Below, piece by piece: positions 5,269 through 64,000 of a stretch of DNA of 64,000 nucleotides (position 1 is the stretch's first letter; each line of letters begins with the position of its first letter). Source of the stretch: an uncultured Acidobacteriota bacterium (GTDB taxonomy: Bacteria; Acidobacteriota; Polarisedimenticolia; J045); contig CAVPCQ010000029.1 in assembly GCA_963702425.1 (NCBI GenBank), positions 1-64,000 on the forward strand, written 5' to 3'. Under the pieces are notes generated by a model. The model saw only the letters and a list, made by a program, of their open reading frames with translations. It was not told the DNA's origin and searched no databases. The translations under genes and the position numbers were made by a program.

Positions 5269-7341
<2,073 letters not shown>

Positions 7342-7343
7342 CG

Positions 7344-23479: not shown

Positions 23480-24427
23480 CGGGGAATCCCGTGCCGGAAC
23501 GGGTCGCGCGGATCCAGCACGAGCGTCGCCTCGGCGGTCACGAACGCCGCGCCGCGGATCGTCGGGACGATCGCCCCGTCGACGATCTCGACGCTCCCGG
23601 TGAAGACGCTGCCGACGACGCTCTCCTGGCGCCACGACTGGCCTGGGGCCAGCTTCCCGTCGGCGACCAGGCAGGCCAGCTTGGCGCTCGTCCCCGTGCC
23701 GCAGGGCGAGCGGTCGTAGGCCATTCCCGGGCAGAGCACGAAGTTCCGGCTGTCGGCGCGCTCGGAGGGGCCGAACAGCTCGACGTGATCGATCTCGGCG
23801 CCGCCCCTCGCCGGTGATCCCCGCGCGCACCAGCGCCTCGCGGATCCGGGTCGCGCAGTCGGTCAGCCTGGGAGCGTTCGCGAGCGCGATCGTCTGCCCG
23901 TGCTCGGACACGAGGAAGAACCAGTTGCCGCCCCAGGCAACGTCGCCCGTCATCTTCCCGTAGCCGGCGACCTCGACCGCCACGCCGCGCCGGAAGCGGT
24001 AGCTGGGAACGTTGCGCACCGAGACCGTCCCGTCGCCGTGCAGCTCCGCCGTCACCGTCCCGACCGGGGTCTCGATCGCGCATCGGCCCGGCCCGATCCG
24101 GCCCAGATGCGCGAGCGTCACGACCAGCCCGATCGCCCCGTGGCCGCACATCCCGAGGTAGCCGACGTTGTTGAAGAAGACGACGCCGGCCGCGCACGAC
24201 GGATCGACCGGCTCGACGACGAGCGCCCCGACCAGGACGTCCGACCCGCGCGGCTCGTTGACGACCGCCGAGCGCAGCCAGTCGTGCTCGCGGCGCAGGA
24301 TCTCGCGGCACTCGGCGAGCGGAACGCGCGGCAGGTCCGGGCCGCCGGAGACGACGACGCGCGTCGGCTCGCCGCCGGTGTGCGAGTCGATGACCCGGAG
24401 CGCGCGCGGCCCTTCGGGCACGATCAA
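23476..24427 (-). CDS. 4-hydroxyproline 2-epimerase (proline racemase family), +1 frameshift in a homopolymer at 23804-23807
   Basis: [15 protein letters not shown] and DRSPCGTG (both catalytic Cys), GGNWF; the halves join if one base of GGGG is removed ([15 protein letters not shown]). Confidence 0.9.
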
Positions 24428-46475: not shown

Positions 46476-48262
46476 GCCGCCGCCTGGTGATCGCCTTCCT
46501 CGCCGTCCTGGCGCTGGGCACCGCGGCCGCTCCGGCGCGGGCTGCCGACGCGCCGATCCAGCTCTCGGTCGGCAGCGCGTTCGCGGACTCCGTCGACCTG
46601 GCGGCGATCCGCGTCAGCGCGGTCCAGGAGGACGGCCGCGTCAAGACTTTCGACTCGCTGGCCCGCGAGCGGCTGAAGCTGGTCAACAGCTCGCGCGCGA
46701 TGCGCGAGATCGACCCGGTGCTGCTCTACCTGGACATGGTCCTGGTCCCCGAGCACTACGCCGGCACGAACGTCATCTTCGTCAAGAAGCCGATGATCCG
46801 GACGCAGATCACGCAGGGCGTGCGCAGCATCGTGCTGCCCGAGAACCGCCAGGGCGTGATCGCTGAGACCGAGCTGCAGCGGATCGAGCAGACCGGGCTG
46901 GTGTCGCCGATCTTCCTCGACCAGCCCGCGGTCCGGCAGGTGCTCGCGGCAATGGAGCGCGACCTGATGCGCACCAGCCGCGAGGTCAACGCGATTCAGG
47001 CCGCCCGCAGCCTGTCCGACGCGGGCGTGCTGTTGTCGCTCTGGCGCCCGGTGCCGCCGGTCGGGGGCAGCGAGACCGATCCCTGGCTGACGGTGGCGCA
47101 GGCCGCCCGCGGGATGATGAGCGCGCCGGGGCGCGCGATCCCGGCCGCGACCGGGCTCGCCGAGCGGAGCGCGGCGATCGGCGCAGCCTGGCAGTCGCTC
47201 GAGAACGCCTGGCGCTTCCAGGACGCCGCGGCCGCCGGCCAGGCGCTCAACACGCTGGCGCAGACCTTCGCGCTGGTGGAGCCGAGGCTCTATCCGGCGG
47301 CGGCGCGCCTGTCGTGGGAGCACTGGTACTACAAGAACGACAAGCTGACGATGGTCTGGCTGGTCTATTTCCTGGCCCTGCCGTTCCTGCTGATGGCCAC
47401 GGTCTACCGGTTCCGCTGGGCGCGGGTCGCCGGGCTGACGCTCTTCGTCACCGGCTTCGCGCTCCAGACCTTCTCGATCGTCCTGCGCTGGTGGCTGGCC
47501 GGGCGGATCCCGAACTCCAACATGTTCGAGGCGGTGACCGCCTCGGCGTGGTTCGGCGCGCTGCTGGCGATCGTGCTGGAGCTCGTCCTGCGGCGCTGGC
47601 CGGTCAAGAACCTGCCCGCGCTCGCGGCCTCCACCTATGCGATGTTCGCGCTGATGCTCGGGCACTTCATGCCGGTCACGCTCAACTCCGACATCTCCAC
47701 CGTCATGCCGGTGCTCGACCGCACGATCTGGCTCTACATCCACACCAACATGGTCATCGCCTCGTATGCGCTGATCTTCTTCGGCGGGGTGACGGCGATC
47801 CTCTATCTCGCGGGCCGGGCGCTGAACTCGTGGGCGACGTCGCCGCGCCTCGCCGAGGCCTGGGCCGGCACCGGCGGCACCGGGGCGATCCGTGGCGGCG
47901 CGGGCTCCCTGATCCTCGGGCGCGGCCTGGCCCCCGGCGACGAGAACCGCTCGGGGCTGGCCAAGTCGCTCGACGGCGCGACGATGATCTTCCTCGAGCT
48001 GGCCTTCATCACGCTCTGGGTCGGGACGATCCTCGGCGCGGTCTGGGCCTACTTCTCGTGGGGCCGTCCGTGGGGCTGGGATCCCAAGGAGGTCTTCGCG
48101 CTCAACACCTGGCTGGTCTTCCTGGTGCTGTTGCACGTCCGCTACAAGGTCAAGGACAAGGCGCTCTGGACCGCGATCCTGGCGGTGATCGGCTGCGCGG
48201 TGATGATCTTCAACTGGGTCGCCGTCAACTTCGTGATCGTCGGCCTGCACAGCTACGCGTAG
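46472..48262 (+). CDS. ccsA: cytochrome c biogenesis protein CcsA/ResC
   Basis: GRVKTFDS, WLYIHT, WWD motif WAYFSWGRPWGWDPKE, terminal GLHSYA; ATGA overlap. Confidence 0.9.
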   Translation: MSRRLVIAFLAVLALGTAAAPARAADAPIQLSVGSAFADSVDLAAIRVSAVQEDGRVKTFDSLARERLKLVNSSRAMREIDPVLLYLDMVLVPEHYAGTNVIFVKKPMIRTQITQGVRSIVLPENRQGVIAETELQRIEQTGLVSPIFLDQPAVRQVLAAMERDLMRTSREVNAIQAARSLSDAGVLLSLWRPVPPVGGSETDPWLTVAQAARGMMSAPGRAIPAATGLAERSAAIGAAWQSLENAWRFQDAAAAGQALNTLAQTFALVEPRLYPAAARLSWEHWYYKNDKLTMVWLVYFLALPFLLMATVYRFRWARVAGLTLFVTGFALQTFSIVLRWWLAGRIPNSNMFEAVTASAWFGALLAIVLELVLRRWPVKNLPALAASTYAMFALMLGHFMPVTLNSDISTVMPVLDRTIWLYIHTNMVIASYALIFFGGVTAILYLAGRALNSWATSPRLAEAWAGTGGTGAIRGGAGSLILGRGLAPGDENRSGLAKSLDGATMIFLELAFITLWVGTILGAVWAYFSWGRPWGWDPKEVFALNTWLVFLVLLHVRYKVKDKALWTAILAVIGCAVMIFNWVAVNFVIVGLHSYA

Positions 48263-48384
48263 GCGAGCCGGGGGCGCCGCTTCCGGCCGCGGGCATACCC
48301 CCGATGGCGAACGACGGGGGTACGCTGGTAAGGTCTTGCCTCCCCGAGACCCGCGCCGGTCCTGCCGGGCGACCCACGGAGCGC

Positions 48385-50736
48385 ATGGCGGTGACGACGC
48401 AAGAACCCCACGATCCCGAGTCCAGCCGGAAGCGTATCGAGGAGGCGCTCGAAGCGTTTCCGGGGCTCGCGGAGATGTTCGCGCGCGCGCTGATGGTAAG
48501 CCTGCACGCGCGCGGGGTAGCGACGGTCGACGAGATCTACGCCGAAGCACGCCGCCGGGCCGGCGGGGCGGGCGAGGACGAGCCGACGGACCTCTCCGAC
48601 GACAACGTGCAAGTTGCCCGGCGCTGGGACGAACTCGAGCGCCGGGAGATCGAGAACCTCACCGTCGAGAAGGCCGCCGCGACTTTCACGCCGGACGAGA
48701 TTGACGACCTCGTCAACCTGACCCGAAAACGCGACGAGGCCCAGAGCCTGGAGGAGATCGCGAATCTCTCGCAGGTGTCGATCCGCATGCTCGCCGAGGC
48801 TGTCAACCGGTTCTGCCGCTTTCCCGAGGGGCAGACGCAGATCCCCGAGTGGGAGTCGCTCGGGGTCCGCGTGGCGCTGATCCGTCACATCATCTCTGAC
48901 CAGCTCGAGTTCATCGGTCTCGCCAAGAAGCACTTCCGGATTCGTGACTTCCAGGATCTCCTCGAGCGGACCATCGGCGATGACCACCGCATGGGCCGGA
49001 TCGGCGGCAAGGCGGCCGGGATGATCCTCGCCAAGAGCATCCTCGAGCGCGCGCGCGCGGAGGATCCCAGCGCCCCCCAGATCCCGATCGCGCTCCCAGA
49101 TTCCTACTACCTGCGCTCGGACGTCATCGAGCAGTTCATGGATCACAACCAGCTCCATGAGCTGCAGAGCCAGAAGTACAAGCCGATCGAGACGATCCGC
49201 CAGGAATACCCGGTCATCCTGAACCTCTTCAAGAACGGCGAGTTCCCGGGTCACCTGATTGAGAAGTTGCGGCGGTTGCTCGGCAAGGTGGGTGACTCGC
49301 CGCTGATCGTGCGCTCCTCGTCGCTGCTCGAGGACCGCTTCGGCGCCACCTTCGCGGGGAAGTATCGCAGCGTCTTCCTTCCGAACCAGGGACCACACGA
49401 GGGCCGCCTCGTCCAGTTGATCGGCGCGATCTGCGAGGTCTTCGCAAGCATCTTCGCCCCCGACCCGATCAGCTACCGGCGCCGCCACAACCTGATCGAC
49501 TACGACGACCTCATGGCGGTACTGATCCAGACGGTTGTCGGGCTGCGCTACGGCCCGTATCTGCTGCCGAGCTGGGCCGGTGTGGCGTTCTCCAGCAACG
49601 AGTACCGCTGGAGCGCCAGGATCCGCCGCCAGGACGGGCTGGCCCGCGTCGTCTTCGGGCTCGGAACCCGCGCCGTGGACCGTGTCGCCTCGGACTTTCC
49701 GCGGATGCTCGCGCTCGGCATGCCGTCGCTGCGGCCGGTCGCCAGCCCGGCCGAGATCCGGCGCTACTCGCAGCGCTACGTCGACGCGATCAACATCGAA
49801 GAGAACCGCTTCGAGACCGTCCCGTTCACCGAGTTGCTCTCGCACGGTTCGTTCCCGGGCCTCGACCAGTTCGTGTCGATCTCCGGGGAGGACGGCTTCT
49901 ACAAGCCCACTGGCACACGGATCGACGCAGCGCCATCGGAGCTGGTCCTGACGTTCGACCGCTTCGCTCAGGAGTCGCCCTACCCGGCGTTCCTGAAGTG
50001 GATGCTGACCACACTCGAGAGGGCCTACGGCTGCCCGATGGACATCGAGTTCGCCCACGACGGCGAGAAATTTCACCTCTTGCAGTGCCGGCCCCAGGCC
50101 TGGCACGAGGAGGAGCGCGCGGTCTACATCCCGCGCAACATCCCCTCCGAGCGCCGGGTCTTCAGCGCGTCGCGTAACATCACCACCGGCTCCGTGCACG
50201 GGATCCAGTACGTCGTCCTCGTCGATCCGCGCGACTACGATTCGATCCAGACGGCGACTGAGCGGCAGCAGGTGGCACGCGTGATCGGACTGCTCAACGA
50301 GGAGCTCAAGGAGAAGGGCTTCATCCTGATGGGACCGGGGCGCTGGGGGTCGAACGACCTGCGGCTGGGGATCAAGATCGGTTACGCCGACATCAACAAC
50401 GCACGGATGCTGATCGAGATTGCGCGCGCGAAGGGGGATCAGGTCCCAGAAGTGTCGTTCGGAACGCACTTCTTCCAAGACCTCGTGGAGTCGGATATCC
50501 GCTACCTGGCGCTCTACCCCGACGATCCGGGCAGCGACTTCAACGAGCGCTTCCTCCACGGCTCTACCAACATGCTTCCGCAGTTTCTGCCGGAGCAGGC
50601 CGAGTGGGCGGGGGTCGTGAAGGTCGTGGATGTGCGGCGCGCCAGCGATGGCCTGTCACTCAACGTGGACATGGACGGCGACAGCCAGCAGGCGCTCGCG
50701 TACCTCGCTCCGGCAGACGACGCGCACCACCACTGA
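48385..50736 (+). CDS. PEP/pyruvate-binding (PPDK_N ATP-grasp) domain protein A, 783 aa
   Basis: IGGKAAG, IVRSSSLLED..FAGKY, GLGTRAV, DIEFA, LLQCRP, GPGRWGS, SFGTHFFQDLVE. Confidence 0.88.
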   Translation: MAVTTQEPHDPESSRKRIEEALEAFPGLAEMFARALMVSLHARGVATVDEIYAEARRRAGGAGEDEPTDLSDDNVQVARRWDELERREIENLTVEKAAATFTPDEIDDLVNLTRKRDEAQSLEEIANLSQVSIRMLAEAVNRFCRFPEGQTQIPEWESLGVRVALIRHIISDQLEFIGLAKKHFRIRDFQDLLERTIGDDHRMGRIGGKAAGMILAKSILERARAEDPSAPQIPIALPDSYYLRSDVIEQFMDHNQLHELQSQKYKPIETIRQEYPVILNLFKNGEFPGHLIEKLRRLLGKVGDSPLIVRSSSLLEDRFGATFAGKYRSVFLPNQGPHEGRLVQLIGAICEVFASIFAPDPISYRRRHNLIDYDDLMAVLIQTVVGLRYGPYLLPSWAGVAFSSNEYRWSARIRRQDGLARVVFGLGTRAVDRVASDFPRMLALGMPSLRPVASPAEIRRYSQRYVDAINIEENRFETVPFTELLSHGSFPGLDQFVSISGEDGFYKPTGTRIDAAPSELVLTFDRFAQESPYPAFLKWMLTTLERAYGCPMDIEFAHDGEKFHLLQCRPQAWHEEERAVYIPRNIPSERRVFSASRNITTGSVHGIQYVVLVDPRDYDSIQTATERQQVARVIGLLNEELKEKGFILMGPGRWGSNDLRLGIKIGYADINNARMLIEIARAKGDQVPEVSFGTHFFQDLVESDIRYLALYPDDPGSDFNERFLHGSTNMLPQFLPEQAEWAGVVKVVDVRRASDGLSLNVDMDGDSQQALAYLAPADDAHHH

Positions 50737-50793
50737 CGGATCGACGGCGCGACACGAGGCGCGCGGCGACCGGTCCGGAGGCAAGGGGCACCC

Positions 50794-51630
50794 GTGACGC
50801 GCTGCGCGTTCGTTTCGGATCTTCACGGCCGCGAGGCGCGGTATCAGGCGCTCTTCCGCTTCCTGTCCGATGCGCAGCCCGACGCGCTGTTCCTGGGAGG
50901 CGACCTGTTGCCGCGCGGTGCCAGCGCAGAGCGCTTCCTCGACGACCTGCTGGAGCCCGCCCTTCGGTCCGTCGGGGCCTCTGCCGACGACAGGACGCGC
51001 GTCTTCCTGCTGCTCGGGAACGACGACCCGGCGATCTACGAGGATGCCGCGCGCCGCGGCGAGGAACGCGGGGCGTGGACCTATCTCCACGCGCGTCGTG
51101 CGCGGCTCGCGGGCCGGGCGGTCTACGGTTACGCCTGCGTCCCGCCGACGCCATTCCTGTTGAAGGACTGGGAGCGATACGACGTCTCGCGTCATACCGA
51201 TCCCGGTTGCGTGTCGCCGGAAGCGGGGCGGCGTACCGTGCCGGTCGCGGAGAACGAGGTGCGCCACGGAACGATCGCCAAGGATCTTGACCGTCTGGCG
51301 GGAGGCGATGACCTGTCCGGCTCGGTCTGGCTGTTCCACTCTCCGCCGTGGAACTCACGTCTCGATCGCGCAGCGCTCGACGGGATGACCGTCGCGGGCG
51401 TGCCGCTCGACCTTCACGTCGGGAGCGTCGCGATCCGCCGCTTCCTCGAGCGTCACGCCGTGCACCTGGCGCTCCACGGCCACGTCCACGAGTCGGCACG
51501 ACTCACCGGCGCGTGGTGCGACCTGGTGGGGCCGACGACCTGCCTGTCCGCGGCGCACGACGGGCCAGAGCTGGCCGTGGTGCAATTCGACCTCGAGGCG
51601 CCCGGGGAAGCGACCCGCGCGCTGCTCTGA
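50794..51630 (+). CDS. calcineurin-like metallophosphoesterase
   Basis: SDLHG, GGDL, GNDD, FHSPP, HGHVHE. Confidence 0.88.
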   Translation: MTRCAFVSDLHGREARYQALFRFLSDAQPDALFLGGDLLPRGASAERFLDDLLEPALRSVGASADDRTRVFLLLGNDDPAIYEDAARRGEERGAWTYLHARRARLAGRAVYGYACVPPTPFLLKDWERYDVSRHTDPGCVSPEAGRRTVPVAENEVRHGTIAKDLDRLAGGDDLSGSVWLFHSPPWNSRLDRAALDGMTVAGVPLDLHVGSVAIRRFLERHAVHLALHGHVHESARLTGAWCDLVGPTTCLSAAHDGPELAVVQFDLEAPGEATRALL

Positions 51631-51656
51631 GATGCCCCGGCTGCGTGACGGACCCG

Positions 51657-54600
51657 TCAGAGGGGCCGCGCGGCGTCGGTCACCGCGCCGATCTTCACAG
51701 CGAAGCTGGTCCCCCGCGCGATGTCGTCGTCGGTGACCAGGTGGACGTCGAGCAGCCCGTTCGAGCGGTAGCCCGTGCGCAGGAAGTTCATCTCGTCGAG
51801 CGCACGGCTCCAGCCGTCCAGCCAGAGGCGGAGCGCGTCGATCTGCTCGGTCGAGGCCCGGTGGTGGACGAGCAGGTCGATGTCGCTGGCCGGCCCTGCG
51901 GTCGCATTCTTCGTGCTGCCGATCAGGTAGACCTTCACGACACCGAACCGTTCCAGGTCCAGCTCGCTCGCGATCCGCTGCGCCATCGCCAGTCGCCAGC
52001 GCCAGTGTGGTTCCGAGGCTCTTTCGCCACGTCCGGACGGCTCCTCTTCCGAGGCCGAAGTGGTTGCCGGCGAGGTCAGGTAGGCGACGGCACTGTCGAG
52101 TGCGGCGTTCATCAGGACGCGCGCGACGAGCCCGCCCGACGAGGCCGGAACGTCGATCACGCGGAGCACCCCGGCGAGGTGGGCGTACTCGGGGAGAATG
52201 CCGGCCAGGAGGTTGTCGGCGGCGTGCAGCCAGCGCTCGTTGAAAACGGCCCCCTCGTCGTCCGGATAGAGCGGCAGGTAGCGGATCCGCGCCTCGACGA
52301 GATCCTGGAAGAAGTGCGTCCCGAACGACAGGTCCGGCGCGTAGCCATCACGCCGGCGTGCCACCTCGACCAGCAAGGCGCAGTGCGAGATGTCGGAATA
52401 GGAGACGCTGACGCCCAGCTTGATATCGCCGCGGCTGCCCCAGCGGCCGGGTCCGATCAGCGCGAACTGCCGCTTGGGGAGCAGTTGGTTCAGGCGGCCG
52501 ACCGCACGGCCGATCGCCAGCAGATCGGCCCTGTCCTGGACCTGGGTGTAGGCCGCAGCATCGACGTAGACGAGGTGCGTCAGGTCGGGTACGCGGCCGT
52601 TCGACACGAAGCGATTCGCGGTGAACAGGACCCGCTCCGTGGGGAGGTCCTGCGGGATCGGCGAGGGGCGACTCTCGTCGGTGTCGCTCTGCGGGCGGCA
52701 CTGGAGCAGGTAGATGTCCGTTCCGTCCGACGCGAACTCGATGTCCACCGGGACGCCCAGCGCGCGCTCCAGCGTCTCGAGAACCGCCCTCATCTCGCCC
52801 AGGAACGGCGTGTCGGAAATCAGCCCCTCGAACGTCCAGACCAGATCTTCGCGCTCGAAGTCGACGCGGGTCCCCAGCGGCTTGCGCACATGCCCTGCGC
52901 TGTGCAGGGAGACCATGCGCGCCACCCCGGGTACCGCAGCGCCGTACTCGCGCAGGAGCGCGTCCACTCGGACCGTCTCGAAGCGATTGGTCTCGAGATT
53001 CAGCACGTCGAGCTTGCGCGGGGCGTAGTGCAGGACCTCGTCCGGCGTGCTGTTGGTGCGTAACCCCGGCTGGCCGGGCGCCACGAGCACCGGATAGTCG
53101 TCGGCCAGGCGATCGACCGCCCGGGTCCCGAGCCCCGGGACCAGCCGCAGCAGGCCGTCCTCGCGCCGGATCCGCGGCGACCAGCGAAACTCGTTGCGTG
53201 AGAATCCCACACCGGCGAAGGTCGGAGCGAAGTAGGGACCGATCCGCGTCCCCACCACCTCCTGGATCATGATGCCCATCTCCTCCTGGAAGTCGGACAG
53301 GCCGCGCTCCATGCGGTACTGGATCGGGTCGGGGCCGAAAGTCGAGGCGTAGACCTCGGCGACCGCGCCGGCGAGCGCCGCGAGGCGCTCCCCCTTGGCC
53401 CCCTGGTTGGCCAGGAAGAGGCTCTTGTACTTGCCCGGGAAGGCTGAGCCGGCGTGGTCCTCGAGCAGGCTCGAGCTGCGCACGATCACCGGGTGCTCGC
53501 CGACCTCGTCGAGCACCTGCGCGAGACCCCGCACGATCTCGGGAGGGAAGGGGCAGCTCTTGAAGGTATCGATGATGTGTGAGTACTCGAGCCGAACCTG
53601 GTTGATCTCCTTGTACTTCTGCTCCACGACGTCGTCGAGGTGGTTGTAGTGGATGAAGTCGAGAAGCACGTCGGAGGTGATGTACCACGTCCGCGGGACC
53701 CGGATGCGTCCCAGCGCCGGGATCTCGGCCGCCGCGCGATCGAGCACCTTTGCGGCCAGGAAGAGCCCGGCGCTCTTGCCGCCCAGCTTCCCCTGGCTCG
53801 CGCTCGTGAAGATCGTTCCCTGCAGCAGGCGGAAGAAGTCCTCGACCTCGAGGTAGCGCTTGGCGACATTGAGGTACTCGAGGTGCTCGGTGAAGAAGCG
53901 TCGTGCCAGAGCGACGATGACACTGCGCTCGGATGACTCCGGCAGCCTGGCCCCCTCCGGCGTCAGCTGGTGGTACCGGCGCAGCGCATCGGCGACCTCG
54001 GGCAGCGGGTGGTTGCGGTTGACGACCGCCTCCACCAGGAAGCTGAGCTTGTCGTTCTGGATCAGCCGCTGCAGGTACGCGAGCGTCTCGTCGTCGCCGA
54101 GATGGCTTGCCGCCAGCTCGACGATCCGGGTGCCGGTGGCGTCGTCGACCACCGAGAGCACGCGGCCGGTATCGGGACGATTCTCGTCGCGCTCCGTCCC
54201 GGCCTCGTCCGCGGGGACCCCCTCCCCCAGCTGGGCGCGCAGCTGCTCCGCCTCCTTGACCCCGCTCCAGCACAGGTGGTTGAGCACCTTGAGCGCGATC
54301 GAGCGGAACAGCGCGCGGTCCGTCTCGCGCAGCAGGTCAAGCACCACGCGCCACGCTACCTGGCGCTGCGCGGAGAGGTCCGCGCTCGCGATCTCGACGC
54401 CCTGGAGCACGTGCTTCATCCGCGCGAACATCACGAAGAAGCCGAGGCGCTCCGCGATCGTGGCGATCAGCTTGGTCTCCTCGGCGAGGAAGGGCCCTTC
54501 GTCCGCCGGTGGGGCGCTGCGGGTGTAGCCGACCGTCAGGTCGCCGAGGTGCTGCCCGTGTACGTGGATGTCGGCCCGCTGCTGCCACGGGGTCTCGGCC

Positions 54601-54827
54601 CAGTTGTCCGTCCGGTAGACGCTGTCCTCGAACTGCACCCGCGCGGCGCACCAGTCGGGAAACTGCCAGCCTGGCGGGATCGCGTTCACCACGGCGTGGA
54701 AGATGTCGTCGAGCGGGATCTCCGGGTGCGCGAGAATCTCCTCGATCCGGTACAGGCACTGGAGTTCCTTGTGGCGCTCGCGCAGAAACCAGATCAGCTT
54801 GTCCAGCGGCGGCTCGGGTCCAGTCAT
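51657..54827 (-). CDS. PEP/pyruvate-binding domain protein B with N-terminal GAF-like and C-terminal nucleotidyltransferase domains, 1056 aa
   Basis: LRERHKELQCLY..PPGWQFP..GPFLAEE (GAF-like); LGGKSAG, VRSSSLLED, QCRP, GTHFFQDLVE; YLIGSTKNATAGPASDIDLLV (GS-DxD). Confidence 0.88.
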   Translation of the reverse strand: MTGPEPPLDKLIWFLRERHKELQCLYRIEEILAHPEIPLDDIFHAVVNAIPPGWQFPDWCAARVQFEDSVYRTDNWAETPWQQRADIHVHGQHLGDLTVGYTRSAPPADEGPFLAEETKLIATIAERLGFFVMFARMKHVLQGVEIASADLSAQRQVAWRVVLDLLRETDRALFRSIALKVLNHLCWSGVKEAEQLRAQLGEGVPADEAGTERDENRPDTGRVLSVVDDATGTRIVELAASHLGDDETLAYLQRLIQNDKLSFLVEAVVNRNHPLPEVADALRRYHQLTPEGARLPESSERSVIVALARRFFTEHLEYLNVAKRYLEVEDFFRLLQGTIFTSASQGKLGGKSAGLFLAAKVLDRAAAEIPALGRIRVPRTWYITSDVLLDFIHYNHLDDVVEQKYKEINQVRLEYSHIIDTFKSCPFPPEIVRGLAQVLDEVGEHPVIVRSSSLLEDHAGSAFPGKYKSLFLANQGAKGERLAALAGAVAEVYASTFGPDPIQYRMERGLSDFQEEMGIMIQEVVGTRIGPYFAPTFAGVGFSRNEFRWSPRIRREDGLLRLVPGLGTRAVDRLADDYPVLVAPGQPGLRTNSTPDEVLHYAPRKLDVLNLETNRFETVRVDALLREYGAAVPGVARMVSLHSAGHVRKPLGTRVDFEREDLVWTFEGLISDTPFLGEMRAVLETLERALGVPVDIEFASDGTDIYLLQCRPQSDTDESRPSPIPQDLPTERVLFTANRFVSNGRVPDLTHLVYVDAAAYTQVQDRADLLAIGRAVGRLNQLLPKRQFALIGPGRWGSRGDIKLGVSVSYSDISHCALLVEVARRRDGYAPDLSFGTHFFQDLVEARIRYLPLYPDDEGAVFNERWLHAADNLLAGILPEYAHLAGVLRVIDVPASSGGLVARVLMNAALDSAVAYLTSPATTSASEEEPSGRGERASEPHWRWRLAMAQRIASELDLERFGVVKVYLIGSTKNATAGPASDIDLLVHHRASTEQIDALRLWLDGWSRALDEMNFLRTGYRSNGLLDVHLVTDDDIARGTSFAVKIGAVTDAARPL

Positions 54828-56545
54828 CGGCGAATCACCCCCTGGCCGGTTCGCCCGTCGACGCGGATCGCCAACGGTGCGGGAAGTCGGATCCAGCGCA
54901 GCCGCGCCGTCTCGCGCAGCGCGGGCTGCGCGTCGAGCCAGTCCCAGTCGATGCTTCCGTCGGTCGCGGAGAAATAGAGCACGCGGAAGCTGGTGACATT
55001 GTGGAAGAAGTGCGCTCCCTGGCTCGGCCGGAACGCCATCCCTGGCAGCATCGCCTCGACGATCACGCGCGCCCCCGAGATCTGTGCGAACGCGACCGGG
55101 ACGCCGCCTGCCGGGTCGGAGGTTCCCCAGCGGCCGAAGCCGACGAGCAGGTAAGGCCGGCCGGCGGCCAGCAACTCCTGGTTCAACGCGTCGAGTTCCT
55201 GCGCGATGCCGGGCGTATCGCCGGCCTCGAACGCCTCGCGCCGAACGACGACCACGTCGGCAACGTCCGGCGCCGCACCGTTGCCCAGCACACCGTGCGC
55301 GGCGAGCAGCAACCCGGCCGGCTCGAGATCCGCGGCCGAGATCTCGACGCGCTCCGCCGAGACCATCATCGGCCGCACCTGCAGGAGGCCCAGCCGTGCA
55401 GCGGACCCGCCTTCCGGGTCGAGCGTGAAAGCCAGTTCGATCTCGACGTCAATGGCGAATTCGGCTCGCGCGGCGTCGAGCAGGGCGACGACGGCGTCGC
55501 TGAACGGGAGCATGCGCGTCTGCCGCAGTGGTGCGAAGTCGAGCATCCGCGGCCCCGGGCGCGAGATCCCGGGGACGAGGCGGTCATCCGCGGCGAGGTA
55601 TGTCGACGCCGTCCAGGTCAGCGTGCCGTCGCTCTCGGCTGCGGCGAGGTCGGCCTGGACGAGGAACTCGGTCTCGTGCGTCGGGTCGTACGCGGGGGGC
55701 TTTCCCATGTTGACGGCCCAGAACGCCGTTTGCCCCTCTTTCACCAGGGCGCGCAGCGAGGTGTAGGGAGGGGCCGTACGGGGGTAGCGCGGGCAGTAGG
55801 CCCATCCCACGCCGTCGTCGACGATCGTGCGGCCCAGCCCGAGTGCCAGTTCCGCGACGCCATCGTCCGGCTTCGCGTGCCCCGACGGATAGAAGTTGAA
55901 AGACCGTCCGACGGCGGAGACGTCGGGGTAGAAACGCTCTCCGTGACGGCGCCCGACCACTTCCTGGACGATCACGGCCATCCGTTCTTCGGTCGGGTCG
56001 CGGCGCGTGGCAGCGATGTACTGGCGCGCGTCCCGGAACCACGTCGACGCGAAGACGAGCTTGATCGCCTCGACCAGTCCGCGGAAGCGTGACGCCGCGT
56101 CCGGCTGGTTGTTGGCGATCATCTTCGTGGCGTAGACGCCGGCGAACGGCTGCTCGAGCGCGTCCTCGAGCAGGCTCGACGAGCGGACGGCGAGCGGCGC
56201 TCTCGCCTCCGTCGCAAGCGCCTGCAGGTCGCCCAGCAGATCGGTCGGGAGCCGGCCGCGCTGGAAGGCCATCGCGATCACGTCGTCCCGCTCGTCGCGC
56301 AACCCGGCGACCGCGTCCAAGCCGTTCAGCTCGAGGAAGCGCTCGAAGCAGTCGGCGGCGAGGACCGTCATCCGCGGGATCGAGATCTCGAGCCCTTCCG
56401 GGGCGAACCGCTCGGCCAGCGAGGCGACGACCCGCTGCGCGCGCACGAGTCCCGAGGCCTTTCCGCCCAAGGGGCCGTCGCCCAGCCGCGTGATCGCCGG
56501 ACCGCGGAGGAACCCCCCTCGGGACAGGCGCGGAATTCCGTCCAC
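54824..56545 (-). CDS. PEP/pyruvate-binding domain protein C, core only (~573 aa)
   Basis: LGGKASG, AVRSSSLLED..FAGVY, GLGRTIV, EIELA, LQVRP, GFGRWGT, SQGAHFFHNVTS; GTG at 56545 (ORF open to 56596); ATGA overlap with protein B. Confidence 0.87.
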   Translation of the reverse strand: MDGIPRLSRGGFLRGPAITRLGDGPLGGKASGLVRAQRVVASLAERFAPEGLEISIPRMTVLAADCFERFLELNGLDAVAGLRDERDDVIAMAFQRGRLPTDLLGDLQALATEARAPLAVRSSSLLEDALEQPFAGVYATKMIANNQPDAASRFRGLVEAIKLVFASTWFRDARQYIAATRRDPTEERMAVIVQEVVGRRHGERFYPDVSAVGRSFNFYPSGHAKPDDGVAELALGLGRTIVDDGVGWAYCPRYPRTAPPYTSLRALVKEGQTAFWAVNMGKPPAYDPTHETEFLVQADLAAAESDGTLTWTASTYLAADDRLVPGISRPGPRMLDFAPLRQTRMLPFSDAVVALLDAARAEFAIDVEIELAFTLDPEGGSAARLGLLQVRPMMVSAERVEISAADLEPAGLLLAAHGVLGNGAAPDVADVVVVRREAFEAGDTPGIAQELDALNQELLAAGRPYLLVGFGRWGTSDPAGGVPVAFAQISGARVIVEAMLPGMAFRPSQGAHFFHNVTSFRVLYFSATDGSIDWDWLDAQPALRETARLRWIRLPAPLAIRVDGRTGQGVIRR

Positions 56546-56561
56546 TGGCCGGCCCCCGTTC

Positions 56562-57857
56562 TCAGGCCCAGCCGCGCTCGCGGCAGGCCTCGGCAACGCG
56601 CGCCACGGCGATGACCAGCGCTGCCTCGCGCAACGGCAGCCGATCGCGGCGCGCCGCTGCGAATACCGCGTGCGCGGCGGTCGTCATCCGGGTGTCGAGC
56701 CGCGCCAGCACCTCGTCCTTCTCCCAGTAGAAGTTCGCGTTGCTCTGCACCTGCTCGAAGTAGCTGCAGGTGACGCCGCCGGAGTTCGCCAGCGCATCGG
56801 GGATCACGGTGACCCCCCGTTCGGCGAGCACGGCGCCGGCCTCGGCCGAGGTCGGCGCATCGGCTCCCTCGAGCACGAAGCGCACCGCCGGATGGACCTT
56901 GGCGACGTTCTCCGCCGTCAGCTGGTTCTCGATCGCGGCCGGGATCAGCACGTCCACTGGCTGCTCGAGCCACGCGGCGCCCGGGAGCAGTTCATATCCC
57001 AGGTCCCGCGCCGCGTCGCGATCGATGGATCCGAAACGATCGGCGACGCCGCGCAGCACCGCCAGGTCCACCCCCTGCTCACGACGGAAGCAGACCGCCT
57101 CGCCGGCGGCCTGGTCCCAGCACGACACCGCGAGGACCTTGCCGCCGACCTGTGTCAGCAGTTCGATCGCGTGCTGGGCGACGTTCCCGAACCCCTGCAC
57201 GCTGGCGGCGACGTTCCGGATCGGCTGCCCCAACTCGGCCAGGGCCTCGCGCAGCACGAAGACCAGCCCGTATCCGGCGGCCTCGGTCCGACCGAGCGAG
57301 CCTCCCAGCGCGACCGGCTTGCCGGTGATGAACCCCGGATCGCGCCGCCCGGCCATCGTCTCGTACTCGTCGAGCATCCAGAGCATGTGGGGCGCGCCGG
57401 TCATGATGTCGGGCGCGGCGACATCGACCCGCGGGCCGAGCTCGCGGAACAACGCACGCACCCAGCCGCGGCAGAGCCGCTGCAGCTCCGCTGCCGACAG
57501 GTCGTGCGGGTCGCAGGCTACCCCGCCGTGGCTGCCGCCGAGCGGGATGTCCACGATCGCGCTCTTCCACGACATCCCCATCGCCAGCGCGCGCGCGGCG
57601 TCGAGCGACTCCTGTGGGTGGAAACGGATTCCCCCCTTGGCCGGACCGCGCGCGTCGTTGTGCTGGACGCGGAAACCGCGGAAGACGCGCGTCCGGCCGT
57701 CGTCCATGGCGACCGGAACCGCGAACCGGTGCTCGCGCAGCGGCCAGCGCAGCAGTTCGCGGAGCGACTCGTCGAGGCCGAGGAAGGTCGCAACCCGGTC
57801 GAACTGGTCCTGCGCGGCGTGGAAGAACTGGTAGGGTGCCGGATGTCCGTCGCTCAT
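56562..57857 (-). CDS. Glu/Leu/Phe/Val dehydrogenase homologue with catalytic Lys replaced by His
   Basis: GPAKGGIRFHP, MSWK, GGSHGG (canonical GGGKGG), APD, TGKP, QGFGNV, IPAAIEN, EGAD (canonical EGAN), LANSGGV; alternative start 57869. Confidence 0.9.
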   Translation of the reverse strand: MSDGHPAPYQFFHAAQDQFDRVATFLGLDESLRELLRWPLREHRFAVPVAMDDGRTRVFRGFRVQHNDARGPAKGGIRFHPQESLDAARALAMGMSWKSAIVDIPLGGSHGGVACDPHDLSAAELQRLCRGWVRALFRELGPRVDVAAPDIMTGAPHMLWMLDEYETMAGRRDPGFITGKPVALGGSLGRTEAAGYGLVFVLREALAELGQPIRNVAASVQGFGNVAQHAIELLTQVGGKVLAVSCWDQAAGEAVCFRREQGVDLAVLRGVADRFGSIDRDAARDLGYELLPGAAWLEQPVDVLIPAAIENQLTAENVAKVHPAVRFVLEGADAPTSAEAGAVLAERGVTVIPDALANSGGVTCSYFEQVQSNANFYWEKDEVLARLDTRMTTAAHAVFAAARRDRLPLREAALVIAVARVAEACRERGWA

Positions 57858-57913
57858 GGCCGTATCCATCCTCCGCCAGGGCGAACCCGCCGGTCGCTTA
57901 CCAGACAGGGTAG

Positions 57914-59431
<1,518 letters not shown>

Positions 59432-59459
59432 TCGCTGGCTTGGGAAGGCTCGTGGGGGG

Positions 59460-59491
59460 GGGGCGGCCGGCGACGGCCGCCCCTTCTCTTT
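59460..59491 (+). terminator. intrinsic terminator of gdhA
   Basis: GGGGCGGCCG-GCGA-CGGCCGCCCC followed by TTCTCTTT. Confidence 0.8.
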
Positions 59492-59494
59492 GCG

Positions 59495-62470
59495 TCAAGG
59501 CTTCAGGATCACGCCGCGCCCCGAGCGCCCGTCGATCCGCACGTCGAGCGGGTCGCCGAGCCGCACGTGGCGCAGGTACGCGGTCTCGGTCTCCGCGCGG
59601 TGAGCCGCCAGCCAGTCGAAGTCCACGAACCCGCTTCCGCGGCGCTGATGGACGGTCAGGTAACCGGTGCCGAAGGACGTGATGTTGTGGAAGAAGTGGC
59701 TTCCCTCCGACGGCGTCACCTCGACGTCGTCGAGGTCGGTCTCGATGATCGCGCGTGCCCCGGCGATCATCCGCCACTCGACCGGGATCCCCAGCCAGTT
59801 GTCCGAAGTTCCCCAGCGGCCGGGTCCGATCAACAGGTAGGGGCGATTCTCCGCGACCAGCCGGCGATTGATCGTCTCGACCTCGCGCGCGATGTCGACC
59901 GTCCGGGCGCGGTCGAACGCCTCTCCCCGGATGTAGACGATGTCCCGGATCTCGGCCACGTGCCCGCGGCCGAGAGCCTGCGGCGAGTCGCAGAGCACCG
60001 CCTCGCGGCCGCTGTTCTCGAGCAGCCGGTCGATGTCGTCGGATCCGACATCGACCACCAGCGGCCGGATCTGCAGGACGCCGAACTCCGCCGGCTCGTC
60101 CGTCGTTTCGGGCAGGTTGACCGCGAACTCGATCTCGACCGGGCAGCTCATCGCCTGCTGGCCGAGCGCGAGAAGTGTCCGCAACACCGCGGCCAGCGGG
60201 AAGAGCCGCATCCGGAGGATCGGGTCGAAGGTGACGACGCGGATCCCGGCCCGGCCGACGCCGGGGTAGAAGGCGTCGTCGTCGCGCGAGTAGGTCGAGG
60301 CGACGCGGCCGAGCGTGCCGTCGCGCTCGGCGTGTGCGAGATCGAGGCGCACCAGGGCATCCTCATGCGTCCGGTCGGGGAAGTCGGCCCCGGCTGACAT
60401 GTCCAGCGCCCAGAACTGGCGCTGCGAGCTCTTCAGCGTGTTGGCGGTCCCGGCGAACTGCAGCACGGCGCGCGGCGCGCCGGGGGAGAAGCGCACGGCT
60501 CGGCCGCCGTCCACGACCGTGCGCCCCAGCCCCAGCGCCACCGCCGCGACGCCATCCTCCGGCTCGAGCCCGAGCATCGGGTAGTAGTTGTAGGACTGCG
60601 CCACGCCGGCGAAGTCGGGATAGAAGTGCGTGCCGCGCGCGCGCCCCACGAGCTGCTGCACGACGACCGCCATCTTCTCCTCTTCGACGCGGTGGGGGGT
60701 CTGCTGCAGGTAGGCCTTGGAGCTCCACGAGTAGGTCGAGGCGTAGACCAGTTTGATCGCGCCGGCGAGCTGCCGCAGGCGCACCTCCGGGTCGTCCGCG
60801 TTGTTGGCCAACATGATCGTCCGGAAGATTCCGGCGAACGGCTGGTCGTGCGAGTCCTCGAGCAGGCTCGAGGAGCGGACCGCGAGCGGGTAGCGCGCCG
60901 TCTCGAGGAAGGCGACGAGGTCCCGTTCGATCGGCGGGGGGAGCGGCGCGGCGAGAAACGCGGCCTCGATCTCCTCGTCCGGCGCGTCGGAGAAGGCCAG
61001 CCGTCCCAGCCCCGGGGTCTGCATGAACTCGCCGAACACCCCGGTCCCCAGCACCGTCGTCGGCGGCACGAACAGGCGCACCCCGGGCGGGACGTGCCCC
61101 TCGCGCTGCCGCCCGAGCAACGAGTGGATGAACCCCAGGCCGCGCCCCTTCCCCCCCATCGAGCCGCTCCCGAGCCGGCTGAACGCCTCGGCGTCGGCCG
61201 GCGCCTGCCGCGCGAAGTCGGCGACGACGCCACGGCGCGTCTCGGCCAGCAGGCCCGAGAAGGCCTCGATCAGGTACCGACGCAGCGCGTCCGTGCTCTC
61301 GAACTCCGACACCTTGCGCGGGCGGAACCGGGCGGCCAGCGCGAACTCCGTGCGCGCCATGCACCAGTTCGAGAAGTGGTTGCGCGAGGCGTGATAGCGC
61401 AGCGACGCCTCGGGGACCTGCGCCAGCGCGCCGGGCATCGCAGCCAGGTCCTTGACGCGCAGCAACTCGTGGCCGGTCGGCGGGTCGACGAATACGAAAT
61501 CGCCGAAGCCGAGGTTCCGGCGGATGAAGTGGCGCAACTCCTCGAGCAGTCGCGGCGAGCGCTTGCTCGAGAAGCCCGCCCCCAGCGCGAGGGCCTTCTC
61601 GCGCAGGCCGGCGTCGGAGGACTGCACCAGGACCGGGAGGTCGGGGACAGCCTGGCGGACCTGCCGCAGCAGTTCGATCCCCGCCTCGGGATCGGACCGC
61701 CCGCCGCGCGGGAAGCGGGCGTCGGTGATGATCCCCAGGATCGAGGGCCGGTAGCGCTCGAACAGGTCGCGGGCCTCCTCGAACGTCTCCGCCAGCAGGA
61801 TCTTCGGCCGCGCCCGCATCCGCCGCAGCCGCTCGCGCGCGTTGACGCCGTCGGCCAGCAGCGCCTGCCCCTGCGCGACCAGCTCGGTGTAGAGCATCGG
61901 CAGGTACGAGGAGTAGAAGCGCACCGAGTTCTCGACCAGCAGGATCATCCGCACGCCGGCGAGGGCGATGTCGCGCTCGGTGTTCCGCTGGTCTTCGATG
62001 TACTTGACGATCGCCAGGAACAGCGCCACGTCGCCGCGCCAGACGAACACCTGGTCGACCGCGGGCGGACCGGGCTGCGCCTTGACGCGGTGCGCCTCGC
62101 GCTGGTTGTCGGCGAGCATCACGACCGGCAAGTCGGGGAAGCGGGCCTTCACCTGCTCGCTGAACTGCCGGACCTCCATCCCGCCGAGCCGGGCCATCGT
62201 GATGACCAGGTCGAACGGCCGAGCTTCGAGCAGCGCGAGCGCCTCCTCGGCCGTCGCGGCCAGCGTGATGCGCGGCGCGAAGCTCAGCTTCAGCTCGTAG
62301 AACTCGGCGTCGAGGCTCTCGGAGAGCTGCCCGTCCTCTTCGAGGATGAACGAGTCGTAGAGGCTGGCGACCAGCAGGACCTCGTGGACCCGGAACGCCA
62401 TCAGCTGGCGGAAGACCGCCTCTTCGGGGTCGATCTCGTGCGCCGTCCGTCCGAGGGGTTCCTCGCTCAT
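59495..62470 (-). CDS. PEP/pyruvate-binding domain protein D with two N-terminal receiver-like domains, 991 aa
   Basis: ATG at 62470 after GGAGG; VLLVASLYD..FDLVITM (REC1), ILLVEN..GIITDARFP..QSS..K (REC2), MGGKGRG, AVRSSSLLED, LQIRP, GPGRWGT, SEGSHFFHNITS. Confidence 0.88.
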   Translation of the reverse strand: MSEEPLGRTAHEIDPEEAVFRQLMAFRVHEVLLVASLYDSFILEEDGQLSESLDAEFYELKLSFAPRITLAATAEEALALLEARPFDLVITMARLGGMEVRQFSEQVKARFPDLPVVMLADNQREAHRVKAQPGPPAVDQVFVWRGDVALFLAIVKYIEDQRNTERDIALAGVRMILLVENSVRFYSSYLPMLYTELVAQGQALLADGVNARERLRRMRARPKILLAETFEEARDLFERYRPSILGIITDARFPRGGRSDPEAGIELLRQVRQAVPDLPVLVQSSDAGLREKALALGAGFSSKRSPRLLEELRHFIRRNLGFGDFVFVDPPTGHELLRVKDLAAMPGALAQVPEASLRYHASRNHFSNWCMARTEFALAARFRPRKVSEFESTDALRRYLIEAFSGLLAETRRGVVADFARQAPADAEAFSRLGSGSMGGKGRGLGFIHSLLGRQREGHVPPGVRLFVPPTTVLGTGVFGEFMQTPGLGRLAFSDAPDEEIEAAFLAAPLPPPIERDLVAFLETARYPLAVRSSSLLEDSHDQPFAGIFRTIMLANNADDPEVRLRQLAGAIKLVYASTYSWSSKAYLQQTPHRVEEEKMAVVVQQLVGRARGTHFYPDFAGVAQSYNYYPMLGLEPEDGVAAVALGLGRTVVDGGRAVRFSPGAPRAVLQFAGTANTLKSSQRQFWALDMSAGADFPDRTHEDALVRLDLAHAERDGTLGRVASTYSRDDDAFYPGVGRAGIRVVTFDPILRMRLFPLAAVLRTLLALGQQAMSCPVEIEFAVNLPETTDEPAEFGVLQIRPLVVDVGSDDIDRLLENSGREAVLCDSPQALGRGHVAEIRDIVYIRGEAFDRARTVDIAREVETINRRLVAENRPYLLIGPGRWGTSDNWLGIPVEWRMIAGARAIIETDLDDVEVTPSEGSHFFHNITSFGTGYLTVHQRRGSGFVDFDWLAAHRAETETAYLRHVRLGDPLDVRIDGRSGRGVILKP

Positions 62471-62493
62471 CGCGCCTCCGCAACGTGCCCGTG

Positions 62494-64000
62494 CTACTTC
62501 GCGGCGGCACCCTCCGGCCGCAGATAGCGCTCCAGTTGCTCGGCGATCCGGCGGTGCAGGTGCAGCCGTGCCGGGTTGCCCGGGATCCCGTGATTCTTGT
62601 TGGGGTAGAGCTGCAGGTCGTACGGTTTCCCGGCCAGGTAGAGCTTCTCGGCCAGCTGGAGCGTGTTCTGCACGTGCACGTTGTCGTCGCTGGTGCCGTG
62701 GATCAGCAGCAGCGCGCCGCCGAGCTTGTCGGCCTGGTTGACGGACGACGAGTCGCGGTAGCCGTCGGGGTTCCCGGAGGGCAGCTTCAGGTAGCGCTCG
62801 GTGTAGGCCGAGTCGTACAGCAGCCAGTTGGTCACCGGCGCGACTGCGGCGCCGACCTTGAAGACCCCCGGCGCGTTGGTCAGCGCGTAGGTCGTCATGT
62901 AGCCGCCGTACGACCAGCCCCAGATTCCGATCCGCTCGCCGTCCACGAAGGGGAGCGACTTGAGGTACTCGACGCCGACCAGCTGGTCCTCCAGCTCGAT
63001 CTTGCCGAAGCGCTTCAGCAGGGCCCGCTCGAAGGCCCGCTCGCGGCCGCCGGAGCCGCGGTTGTCGATCGAGAAGACGAGGGTACCGCGCCCGGCGAGG
63101 TAGCTGTGGAACATCGTGTACGAGCGCGCCCAGGCGTCGGAGACGACCTGCGGGCCGGGGCCGCCGTAGACGTAGACGACGACCGGGTACTTCTTCGCCG
63201 GGTCGAAGTCGGCGGGCTTGAGCAGGCTGGCGTGCAGCGTGGTGCCGTCCTTCGCCTTCAGGGTGAGGAACTCCTGCGTCCCGATCGCGTACTCGAACCA
63301 CGGCGCCTTGCCGTTGTCGATCAGCGTCGCCTTGCGCCGCCCCGCGGCGTCGATCAGGTAGGTCGACGGGGGGACGAGCGCCGCGGAGAAGCTGTCGACC
63401 GCGAAGCGGTTCCCCGGCGCCATCTCGGTGACGTAGTGGGTGCCCTTTTCTTCGGTCAGGCGCTTGAAGCCGGAGCCGTCGAGCTGCACGCGGTAGAGTT
63501 GCAGCTCGAGCACGTTCTTCTGCTTCCCGACGAAGAAGACCGTGCCCGCGGCCTCGTCGAGGCCGACGACGGCAGAGACGTTCCACGGTCCGGAGGTGAG
63601 CTGCCGGATCGGCCTGCCGGCGGCGTCATGGAGACAAAGGTGCCGGTTGCCGTCGCGCTCGGAGGACCACAGGAAGCGCCCGTCGGCGAGAAAACGCAGG
63701 TCGTCGTGCAGGTTGATCCACGCGGCGTCGGTCTCGACGAGCAGCGGCGTCGAGACGCCGGTCGCACGGTCGAGCAGCGTCAGCTGCAGCCGCGTCTGGA
63801 GCCGGTCGATGACCTGGTACCAGGCCGCGTTGCCGTTCGGCGTCCAGCCGACGCGCACGAGGTAGGTCTCGCCATTCGGCCACTTCAGCTCGTGGGCCAG
63901 GGCGCGCCCGTCGGGCTCCGGGACGACGGAGACGACGCGCAGCGACGGGATCGGGTTCGGGTCTCCGGCCTTCGGGTAGGGGCTCGAGGTGACGACCGGC
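62494..64000 (-). CDS. S9B dipeptidyl peptidase IV family protein, 5' end outside the window
   Basis: YPKAG, YVYGGP, DNRG, GWSYGG nucleophile, HGTSDDNVH, YPNKNH. Confidence 0.93.
   Translation of the reverse strand, partial: PVVTSSPYPKAGDPNPIPSLRVVSVVPEPDGRALAHELKWPNGETYLVRVGWTPNGNAAWYQVIDRLQTRLQLTLLDRATGVSTPLLVETDAAWINLHDDLRFLADGRFLWSSERDGNRHLCLHDAAGRPIRQLTSGPWNVSAVVGLDEAAGTVFFVGKQKNVLELQLYRVQLDGSGFKRLTEEKGTHYVTEMAPGNRFAVDSFSAALVPPSTYLIDAAGRRKATLIDNGKAPWFEYAIGTQEFLTLKAKDGTTLHASLLKPADFDPAKKYPVVVYVYGGPGPQVVSDAWARSYTMFHSYLAGRGTLVFSIDNRGSGGRERAFERALLKRFGKIELEDQLVGVEYLKSLPFVDGERIGIWGWSYGGYMTTYALTNAPGVFKVGAAVAPVTNWLLYDSAYTERYLKLPSGNPDGYRDSSSVNQADKLGGALLLIHGTSDDNVHVQNTLQLAEKLYLAGKPYDLQLYPNKNHGIPGNPARLHLHRRIAEQLERYLRPEGAAAK

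Follow-up and report, generated by a model that had tools for sequence, protein, structure and literature searches.

A glutamate dehydrogenase homologue without its catalytic lysine in a conserved operon with two dikinase-like proteins: repeated loss of the lysine

psiGDH is a homologue of glutamate dehydrogenase (GDH), the enzyme that links carbon and nitrogen metabolism, in which histidine stands at the position of the catalytic lysine. It is encoded in a stretch of 64,000 nucleotides from an uncultured Acidobacteriota bacterium (GenBank assembly GCA_963702425.1, contig CAVPCQ010000029.1, positions 1 to 64,000), which is called the window below. Judging from its sequence psiGDH very probably does not work as a normal GDH, and its gene is followed by those of two proteins carrying the PPDK_N (ATP-grasp) domain, B and C. 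Comparison with orthologous loci indicates that within this one conserved operon the catalytic lysine was lost at least twice, probably three times, and the chances seem to us about even that selection maintains psiGDH in a non-catalytic role, as partner or sensor of the B/C pair. Only a few cases are known in bacteria where GDH is controlled through covalent modification or through partner proteins dedicated to it. The gene and its altered codon are located as follows.

56562..57857, minus strand: psiGDH, a full-length GDH homologue of 431 amino acids with GGSHGG for GG[GAS]KGG, first gene of the operon.
57528..57530, minus strand: CAC codon of His110 at the catalytic lysine position, from the codon read-out and the alignments.

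The reading frame of psiGDH is open throughout (an alternative upstream ATG at 57869 in the list of open reading frames, ORFs, would give 435 amino acids), and both Pfam domains of the small hexameric Glu/Leu/Phe/Val dehydrogenases (RocG/archaeal type) are present at full length. ELFV_dehydrog_N (PF02812) covers residues 41–166 (E 1.2e-48, 164.5 bits with a cut-off of 25.3) and ELFV_dehydrog (PF00208) residues 185–429 (E 2.3e-61, 208 bits with a cut-off of 23.4), whereas all six NCBIfam GDH equivalog models that match psiGDH score under their cut-offs, the best being GdhA_Arch with 378.6 bits against 750. The best sequence relatives among solved structures are the small hexameric GDHs 8ysw and 8i83 (E about 4e-105), with 3aoe from Thermus lower in the list. 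The structure predicted by AF2 from a 44-row alignment (predicted local distance difference test, pLDDT, 82.5; predicted template modelling score, pTM, 0.83) has low confidence only at residues 1–8 and 174–186 and adopts the GDH fold, with Foldseek TM values of 0.83/0.87 to 8i83 and 0.83–0.84 to 1euz, 1gtm and 3aoe. The initial annotation had called psiGDH a paralogue; GDH homology stands, and recent paralogy with the adjacent GdhA-type gene does not, since the two share 34% identity and belong to different GDH classes.

The motif is encoded by ATC CCG CTC GGC GGC AGC CAC GGC GGG (PLGGSHGG), and in the alignment its "plggshgg" pairs with "pygggkgg" of the solved enzymes, so that psiGDH lacks the lysine of GG[GAS]KGG. 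This lysine is held in 151 of 151 Lys-bearing orthologues (a group so defined) and in 13 of 13 more distant outgroup GDHs. In an older proposal it forms a Schiff base, and structural work on the Clostridium enzyme reportedly gives it a general-base or water-activating role. As the initial annotation had already read from the sequence, EATG has become EAAG (T194A) and EGAN has become EGAD (N333D), and the alignments add G334A and A359S to these active-site changes. Retained are K74 (AKGG) and K98 (SWK), which we take to be the two substrate lysines, D150, presumably the catalytic Asp of the APD motif, R190, N358, S365 and GFGNV; Arg190 and Ser365 are likewise presumed to have their usual roles, and GFGNV to represent the GxGNV dinucleotide fold.

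A sequencing or assembly error as the origin of GGSHGG can be ruled out, because His occupies the site in all six members of the psiGDH 90% cluster, which are about 97% alike, come from JGI, ENA and NCBI, and include one fragment of 381 amino acids. The suspicion that a single read error was unlikely is thereby confirmed, and the change from AAG or AAA to CAC takes two base changes in any case. The guanine-cytosine content at third codon positions (GC3) of psiGDH is 0.90 and matches that of the neighbouring genes. Relocation of the catalytic lysine within the protein was also considered and rejected: no new lysine is present close to the lost site, and the sole column that gains one is the variable position 281.

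The genes around psiGDH that form the operon, or accompany it, are the following.

54824..56545, minus strand: protein B, about 573 amino acids, with PPDK_N (ATP-grasp; Pfam E 2.4e-25) and a conserved C-terminal region.
51657..54827, minus strand: protein C, 1056 amino acids, with an N-terminal region of no recognised kind, PPDK_N at 347–728 and NTP_transf_2 at 959–995.
50794..51630, plus strand: calcineurin-like metallophosphoesterase (Metallophos, Pfam E 2.5e-12), convergent with C.
58085..59431, plus strand: GdhA-type GDH of the class of about 450 amino acids, canonical with GGGKGG, EATG and EGAN, divergent from psiGDH across a 227-nt spacer.

A GDH gene followed on the same strand by PPDK_N proteins, one of them with a nucleotidyltransferase domain, defines what we call the module, and the window has this arrangement in the order psiGDH-B-C. 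B probably starts at GTG 56545, 16 nt past the psiGDH stop (the listed ORF reaches 56596, and strain variants carry ATG at 56545), and the start of C overlaps the stop of B (ATGA). ATP-grasp motifs are conserved in both B and C, most loci have a B orthologue after the GDH gene, orthologues of C share 46–58% identity at 32 loci, and the metallophosphoesterase occupies the same place at many loci, where it often joins the module as its fourth component. The C-terminal region of B contains S-Q-G-x-H-F-F-H-N, invariant in 44 of 44 sequences, which faintly recalls the phosphohistidine loop of enzymes utilising phosphoenolpyruvate (PEP); Pfam detects no swivel domain there.

That psiGDH heads a unit with B and C had been proposed in the initial annotation, and this unit is conserved far outside the genome. 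Orthologues at 55–68% identity were collected from related genomes (7), metagenome loci (80) and species-genome loci (80), matches of less than 400 residues, below 55% identity or with stops were excluded, and 164 coding sequences including the window were left. These loci include relatives and near-duplicates and are not independent (L030 and L177 are the same protein), organism names are taken from record titles, and L022 (genome G034) was used as an outgroup row only. The titles span Acidobacteriota (Vicinamibacteria, Aminicenantes, Terriglobales), Ignavibacteriota, Zixiibacteriota, Cloacimonadota, Bacillota, Bacteroidota, Calditrichota, Gemmatimonadota and others. A metagenome search for psiGDH orthologues gave only matches of at most 67% identity. 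In a tree with other small GDHs the module GDHs form a subfamily of their own, an 87-row clade that includes psiGDH and is set apart by a branch of 2.0 with support 100.

GG[GAS]KGG is present in 151 of the 164 sequences, and the other 13 lack the lysine. B or C lies downstream on the same strand at 106 of the 122 Lys-bearing loci whose downstream DNA extends for at least 1 kb, at one of three extra Lys-bearing loci that the motif filter had set aside (GGGKGG by eye), and at 12 of 12 Lys-less loci, so that a link between Lys-less GDHs and the ATP-grasp family, suggested from the window alone, does extend to other genomes. Two other module GDHs are irregular. In the Lys-bearing metagenome protein P0004 (491 amino acids) about 60 residues around the GFGNVAQ dinucleotide-binding segment are duplicated internally, and L010 (G033:C10:473376-474646) consists of two overlapping pieces in different frames, residues 7–338 and 330–430, which is likely a frameshift or sequencing error.

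The Lys-less sequences consist of the window, L175 and a clade of eleven (L029, L032, L031, L064, L041, L080, L103, L107, L115, L117 and L150). This clade is supported by the Shimodaira-Hasegawa-like approximate likelihood ratio test (SH-aLRT) at 96–97, with bootstrap values of 81–100 at inner nodes, and its lysine site, always preceded by Ser, holds Asn in five members, Ser in three, His in two (L031 and L064) and Thr in one. L103 has Asn and L031 has His despite 96% identity between them, which argues that the former lysine site drifts and the remainder of the protein is held. Other changes in the clade are D150E in seven members, Y414F in ten and T194A in four, and L150 has N333H and N225S in addition. 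L175 (8001-9266), from a metagenome-assembled genome (MAG) of Bacteroidales, reads GGATGG and carries S365D at the substrate-binding Ser, N358G and N225K, and it still heads B and C. It groups with L160 (99/96) away from the clade of eleven and departs at 18 of 159 near-invariant columns; it represents a separate, more extreme Lys-less case.

The position of the window is more difficult to fix, as the trees are quick or single careful searches and the amino-acid composition of the window sequence departs from that of the alignment. A quick tree from all columns places the window inside the Lys-less clade (SH-aLRT 94). Columns 109, 110, 150, 194 and 414, which carry the trait itself, were removed for later GDH trees, and both the quick and the careful tree then set the window next to a group of Lys-bearing sequences, two Vicinamibacteria MAGs among them, at a support of only 77/63. 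In approximately unbiased (AU) tests a constraint joining the window to the eleven beats the quick free tree of 54 rows by 25.9 log-likelihood units (p-AU 0.862); with the careful 35-row tree the same constraint is 2.99 log-likelihood units lower and is not rejected (p-AU 0.392). Because of these tests and the shifting placement the GDH tree cannot decide between one loss and several. The tree of protein C (quick, LG+G4, 32 rows) has no comparable long branch and places the window at the base of a 15-locus set with support 98; the Lys-bearing loci L072 and L182 join the eleven by branches of 99, and the branches starred in this tree force three state changes. If the operon was inherited as a unit, the loss in the window is therefore independent, which we regard as fairly likely on these sequence comparisons.

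The rate ratio of nonsynonymous to synonymous change (dN/dS) in the clade of eleven, by the method NG86, is 0.073–0.115 for 11 pairs with dS of 0.1–1.5 (0.108 at dS 0.152 for the least saturated pair), and the median for Lys-bearing pairs in the same dS range is 0.189 (n=1673). Since NG86 is biased and unreliable in GC-rich genes, only a statement on purifying selection is drawn from these values: selection on the Lys-less proteins of the clade appears no weaker than in their active relatives. Purifying selection on Lys-less copies elsewhere fits a retained non-catalytic role. For the window lineage itself, none of the six members of the 90% cluster has an interrupted frame. Strain variants occur on contigs of four sediment runs from four studies, with 514 differences over 7.9 kb. 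Among 40 of these, eight fall in psiGDH, six synonymous and two in codon 215, and the ratio of synonymous to other differences is 14:2 in B, 7:6 in C and 3:0 in GdhA.

At 9 of the 12 other Lys-less loci, as in the window, the 4 kb upstream of the GDH contain a GdhA-type gene (at least 55% identity). The nine genes are all divergent, eight of them within about 300 nt and that of L064 at 3.4 kb; as for the remaining Lys-less loci, the upstream DNA of L031 ends after 262 nt, the GdhA gene of L150 is about 9 kb off, and L175 has none within 8 kb. Such a gene was found near 5 of 151 Lys-bearing loci (divergent at L004, L086 and L106; on the same strand at L087 and L129) and at 0 of the 102 Lys-bearing loci whose upstream DNA reaches 1.5 kb or more. 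The association is strong, and is to be counted as two or three evolutionary events, not as 10 independent loci.

On this basis we propose that psiGDH would have given up normal glutamate dehydrogenase chemistry and would be kept as a non-catalytic member of the GDH-B-C module. Its ligands may still include glutamate or 2-oxoglutarate, possibly also NAD(P)H, and it could serve B and C as a docking partner or sensor, or be their target. By phosphorylation or nucleotidylation B and C would give an ATP-dependent output that the phosphoesterase undoes and that reports or controls the nitrogen/carbon state; the nucleotidyltransferase domain together with the phosphoesterase suggests a reversible covalent modification. 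The neighbouring GdhA may have taken over catalysis, so that the module GDH would be free to lose it. A wider and doubtful extension is that the module GDH is in general the metabolite-reading subunit of an undescribed ATP-driven signalling device, that the Lys-less copies represent its pure sensor state, and that this state arises beside GdhA, the enzyme which the device controls. The device would comprise the dikinase-like ATP-grasp pair, the nucleotidyltransferase and the phosphoesterase, and that catalysis is dispensable for the role of GDH in it is equally tentative.

In the predicted complex of psiGDH (residues 6–431) with B the score is 0.53 (0.49, 0.61 and 0.53 in the runs), with 0.00 for the best control and a verdict of weak support; the runs share at least 97% of contacts, and the pLDDT of the partner is at least 82. 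The mark is reached by 116 of 157 solved complexes and by 2 of 215 mismatched pairs, and those that pass it with 0.60 or less are only 18 of the 157 solved complexes and both of the passing mismatches, so we read the result as a mild push towards a contact between psiGDH and B. Repeated loss of catalysis in one conserved operon, with selection still acting on the protein, would mean that the fold has a second job there, and the Lys-less GDHs would provide a natural separation-of-function allele for probing the role of a widespread dikinase-like pair. A Lys-less module GDH is not mentioned in the accessible parts of the literature on glutamate dehydrogenase pseudoenzymes and on Thermus GdhA/GdhB.

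In addition to the limits just given for NG86, for the GdhA association and for the predicted complex, several observations weigh against a maintained non-catalytic role in the window. Distances dS from the window to all relatives are saturated, and the dN/dS values of 0.08–0.29 against other Lys-less rows are untrustworthy. psiGDH departs at 12 of the 159 near-invariant columns (T87A, W94G, K110H, Q125L, E126Q, P147A, T194A, N333D, G334A, D341G, A359S and Y414L), compared with 3–10 in the eleven and a mean of 0.75 in the 151 Lys-bearing rows (median 0, maximum 6), and its branch measures 1.23–1.27 changes per site against 0.13–0.18 for the median tip. Identity to 16 Lys-bearing orthologues is 62.8% for the window GDH, 71.2% for the eleven and 78.4% for the Lys-bearing proteins among themselves. 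The corresponding figures are 51.5, 55.7 and 58.8 for B and 54.3, 55.3 and 59.8 for C; the window lags behind the eleven by only about 4 points in B and 1 in C, and the acceleration is thus specific to GDH. The long branch, the 12 departures and this GDH-specific acceleration together indicate that constraint on the window copy is partly relaxed. Furthermore, no RNA runs containing the locus are listed, and none of seven long GDH homologues carries PF01326 as a GDH-PPDK_N fusion, a weak negative since relatives may be crowded out.

The window copy is the most eroded of those compared, and decay or partial relaxation therefore stays a serious rival. Carried to its end, it would say that the module GDH became dispensable after the 14.2-kb segment described below came with a working GdhA, that it is drifting to loss, and that the open frame is a leftover. 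The acceleration confined to GDH, the departures at near-invariant columns and the lack of the segment in four same-genus genomes would all follow from this, and the initial annotation had named, as signs of simple decay, lysine in all close orthologues and relaxed selection on this copy. The nearest Lys-bearing orthologues (at most 68% identity) do all have the lysine, and psiGDH does evolve faster; full decay is a different matter, as Lys-less copies elsewhere, in particular the larger clade, are maintained by selection. The frame of 431 codons is moreover whole after about 1.2 changes per site, 147 of the 159 near-invariant columns are retained, all six variants are intact, GC3 is 0.90, B begins only 16 nt away, and of the eight psiGDH differences among those 40 between strains six are synonymous, the other two sharing one codon. 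We consider a decaying relic rather improbable.

It is also conceivable, and in our view unlikely without being far-fetched, that psiGDH is still an enzyme, in which His110 partly stands in as general base and leaves a weak GDH activity, or in which the altered pocket (T194A, N333D, G334A, A359S) runs another NAD(P)-dependent reaction feeding B and C. psiGDH retains its substrate-binding residues, Asp150 and the dinucleotide fold, His is fixed in the six variants of the lineage and recurs in L031 and L064, and Lys-less proteins in other lineages are under selection. A new catalytic residue would however hardly vary between Asn, His, Thr and Ser, even among proteins 96% identical, nor would one expect the catalytic Asp to become Glu in 7 of the 11 clade members, or each lineage to acquire further active-site changes of its own (S365D, N358G and N225K in L175; N333H and N225S in L150).

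A regulatory subunit of the kind known in Thermus offers another explanation, with psiGDH entering mixed hexamers with a catalytic GDH, either one encoded on contig C33 or the adjacent GdhA, and tuning its activity. GdhA of Thermus is a catalytically inactive regulatory subunit (PMC9570180), so the precedent to which the initial annotation had appealed is in print; Thermus thermophilus GdhA, in the GdhA/GdhB hetero-hexamer (PDB 3AOE), likewise keeps the small hexameric GDH fold without catalysis, and 3aoe is a top structural and sequence match of psiGDH. A candidate partner is present in the same genome, namely a third GDH gene on contig C33 that is 51% identical to psiGDH, has GGGKGG and belongs to the same small class, and GdhA adjoins most Lys-less loci. 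In Thermus, however, the inactive subunit is paired with a catalytic GDH of its own class, with leucine as effector, whereas the conserved partners of psiGDH are two dikinase-like proteins and its neighbouring GDH is of another class, which with 34% identity makes mixed hexamers less likely. A search with PF00208 in five other Lys-less genomes found in two of them, G041 (a single-chromosome assembly) and G044, no small GDH beyond GdhA and the psiGDH counterpart, which disfavours a same-class pairing of the Thermus kind as a general rule, and across phyla it is B and C that are conserved, without a second GDH. This explanation seems to us quite unlikely.

Returning to the reading of psiGDH as a maintained non-catalytic partner, several relatives help to define what is particular to it. 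Lys-bearing module GDHs (L043, the Vicinamibacteria MAGs L104/L105, and G030) share the subfamily (59–68% identity, stem support 100), the GDH-B-C arrangement along with the phosphoesterase and, at a few loci, a divergent GdhA; unlike psiGDH they keep GG[GAS]KGG, and they average 0.75 departures where psiGDH has 12. The clade of eleven, some of whose titles name Aminicenantes, has GGS[NHTS]GG, the operon and mostly the adjacent divergent GdhA, and T194A and a change at Tyr414 are common to it and the window. In contrast to the window it evolves at ordinary rates and mostly has D150E, whereas psiGDH keeps Asp150 and has N333D, G334A and A359S; identity between them is 61–64%, and Lys-bearing loci stand between them in the protein C tree. 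RocG and GudB of Bacillus subtilis are GDHs of the same class engaged in regulatory protein contacts, being reportedly "trigger enzymes" that bind GltC, and 7mfm (GltAB-GudB) and 3k8z are among the best matches of psiGDH; they differ in that they are still active enzymes without a link to PPDK_N. For B and C a working model may be found in VadK (Rv1127c), which is described as a regulatory kinase derived from PPDK that autophosphorylates, binds metabolic enzymes and tunes flux (PMC13400623). As a cut-down dikinase it would resemble them through the PPDK_N domain, in a different organism and pathway.

psiGDH is the resident GDH of a module that rides on an accessory segment, and the segment with its two outer genes is as follows.

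48263..62493, no strand assigned: accessory segment of 14.2 kb (14,231 bases) carrying A, the metallophosphoesterase, C, B, psiGDH, GdhA and D.
48385..50736, plus strand: protein A, a paralogue of C with PPDK_N, start at 48385 or 48304.
59495..62470, minus strand: protein D, a response-regulator receiver domain with a B-like PPDK_N part, likely start ATG 62470.

Two convergent conserved genes flank the segment and are adjacent in the same-genus genomes G002 and G004. The window DNA up to 48264 (95% identity in G004, 87% in G002) joins there directly to the DNA from about 62520 (86% and 83%), and these empty junctions consist of the stop TAG of the plus-strand gene (48260–48262), a short spacer of roughly 50 nt in G004 and longer in G002, and the 3' end of the minus-strand gene. 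In four same-genus genomes (81–96% complete) neither a module-type GDH nor a GdhA-type gene was found at E<1e-30, orthologues of B and D are absent, and only one A-like gene is present. The segment has a GC content of 0.688 compared with 0.723 in the remaining window. Signatures of a mobile element were sought at its ends, and neither a tRNA gene nor terminal repeats were found there.

The starts of A and D were taken from the codon-position GC profile and the stop-to-stop ORF list. The listed ORFs (1140 amino acids for A and 1363 for D) open with about 330 and 370 codons, respectively, whose GC3 is only 0.42–0.54, and these are for this reason regarded as not coding. The two leaders (window 47314–48300 and 62494–63586) overlap real genes in other frames, namely the plus-strand gene ending at 48262 and the minus-strand gene ending at 62494.

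Elsewhere in the window three further regions drew attention. At 1900–9002 kdpD, kdpC and kdpA are recognised, and in the gap between kdpC and kdpA, where kdpB is expected, the plus-strand ORFs picked have no Pfam match and are probably antisense artefacts. In the region of phosphoenolpyruvate carboxykinase (PEPCK), a direct repeat of 300 nt with 96% identity occurs at 14764–15063 and 16063–16362, 1299 nt apart, and pieces of PEPCK_GTP and PEPCK_N are found out of order by Pfam over the ORFs 14722–16905 and 16975–17790; the repeat reflects a partial tandem duplication or else an artefact of assembly. Finally, an ORF of 695 amino acids on the minus strand (22340–24427) combines a proline-racemase-like domain (12–201) with a DAO domain of FAD-dependent oxidoreductases (325–667).

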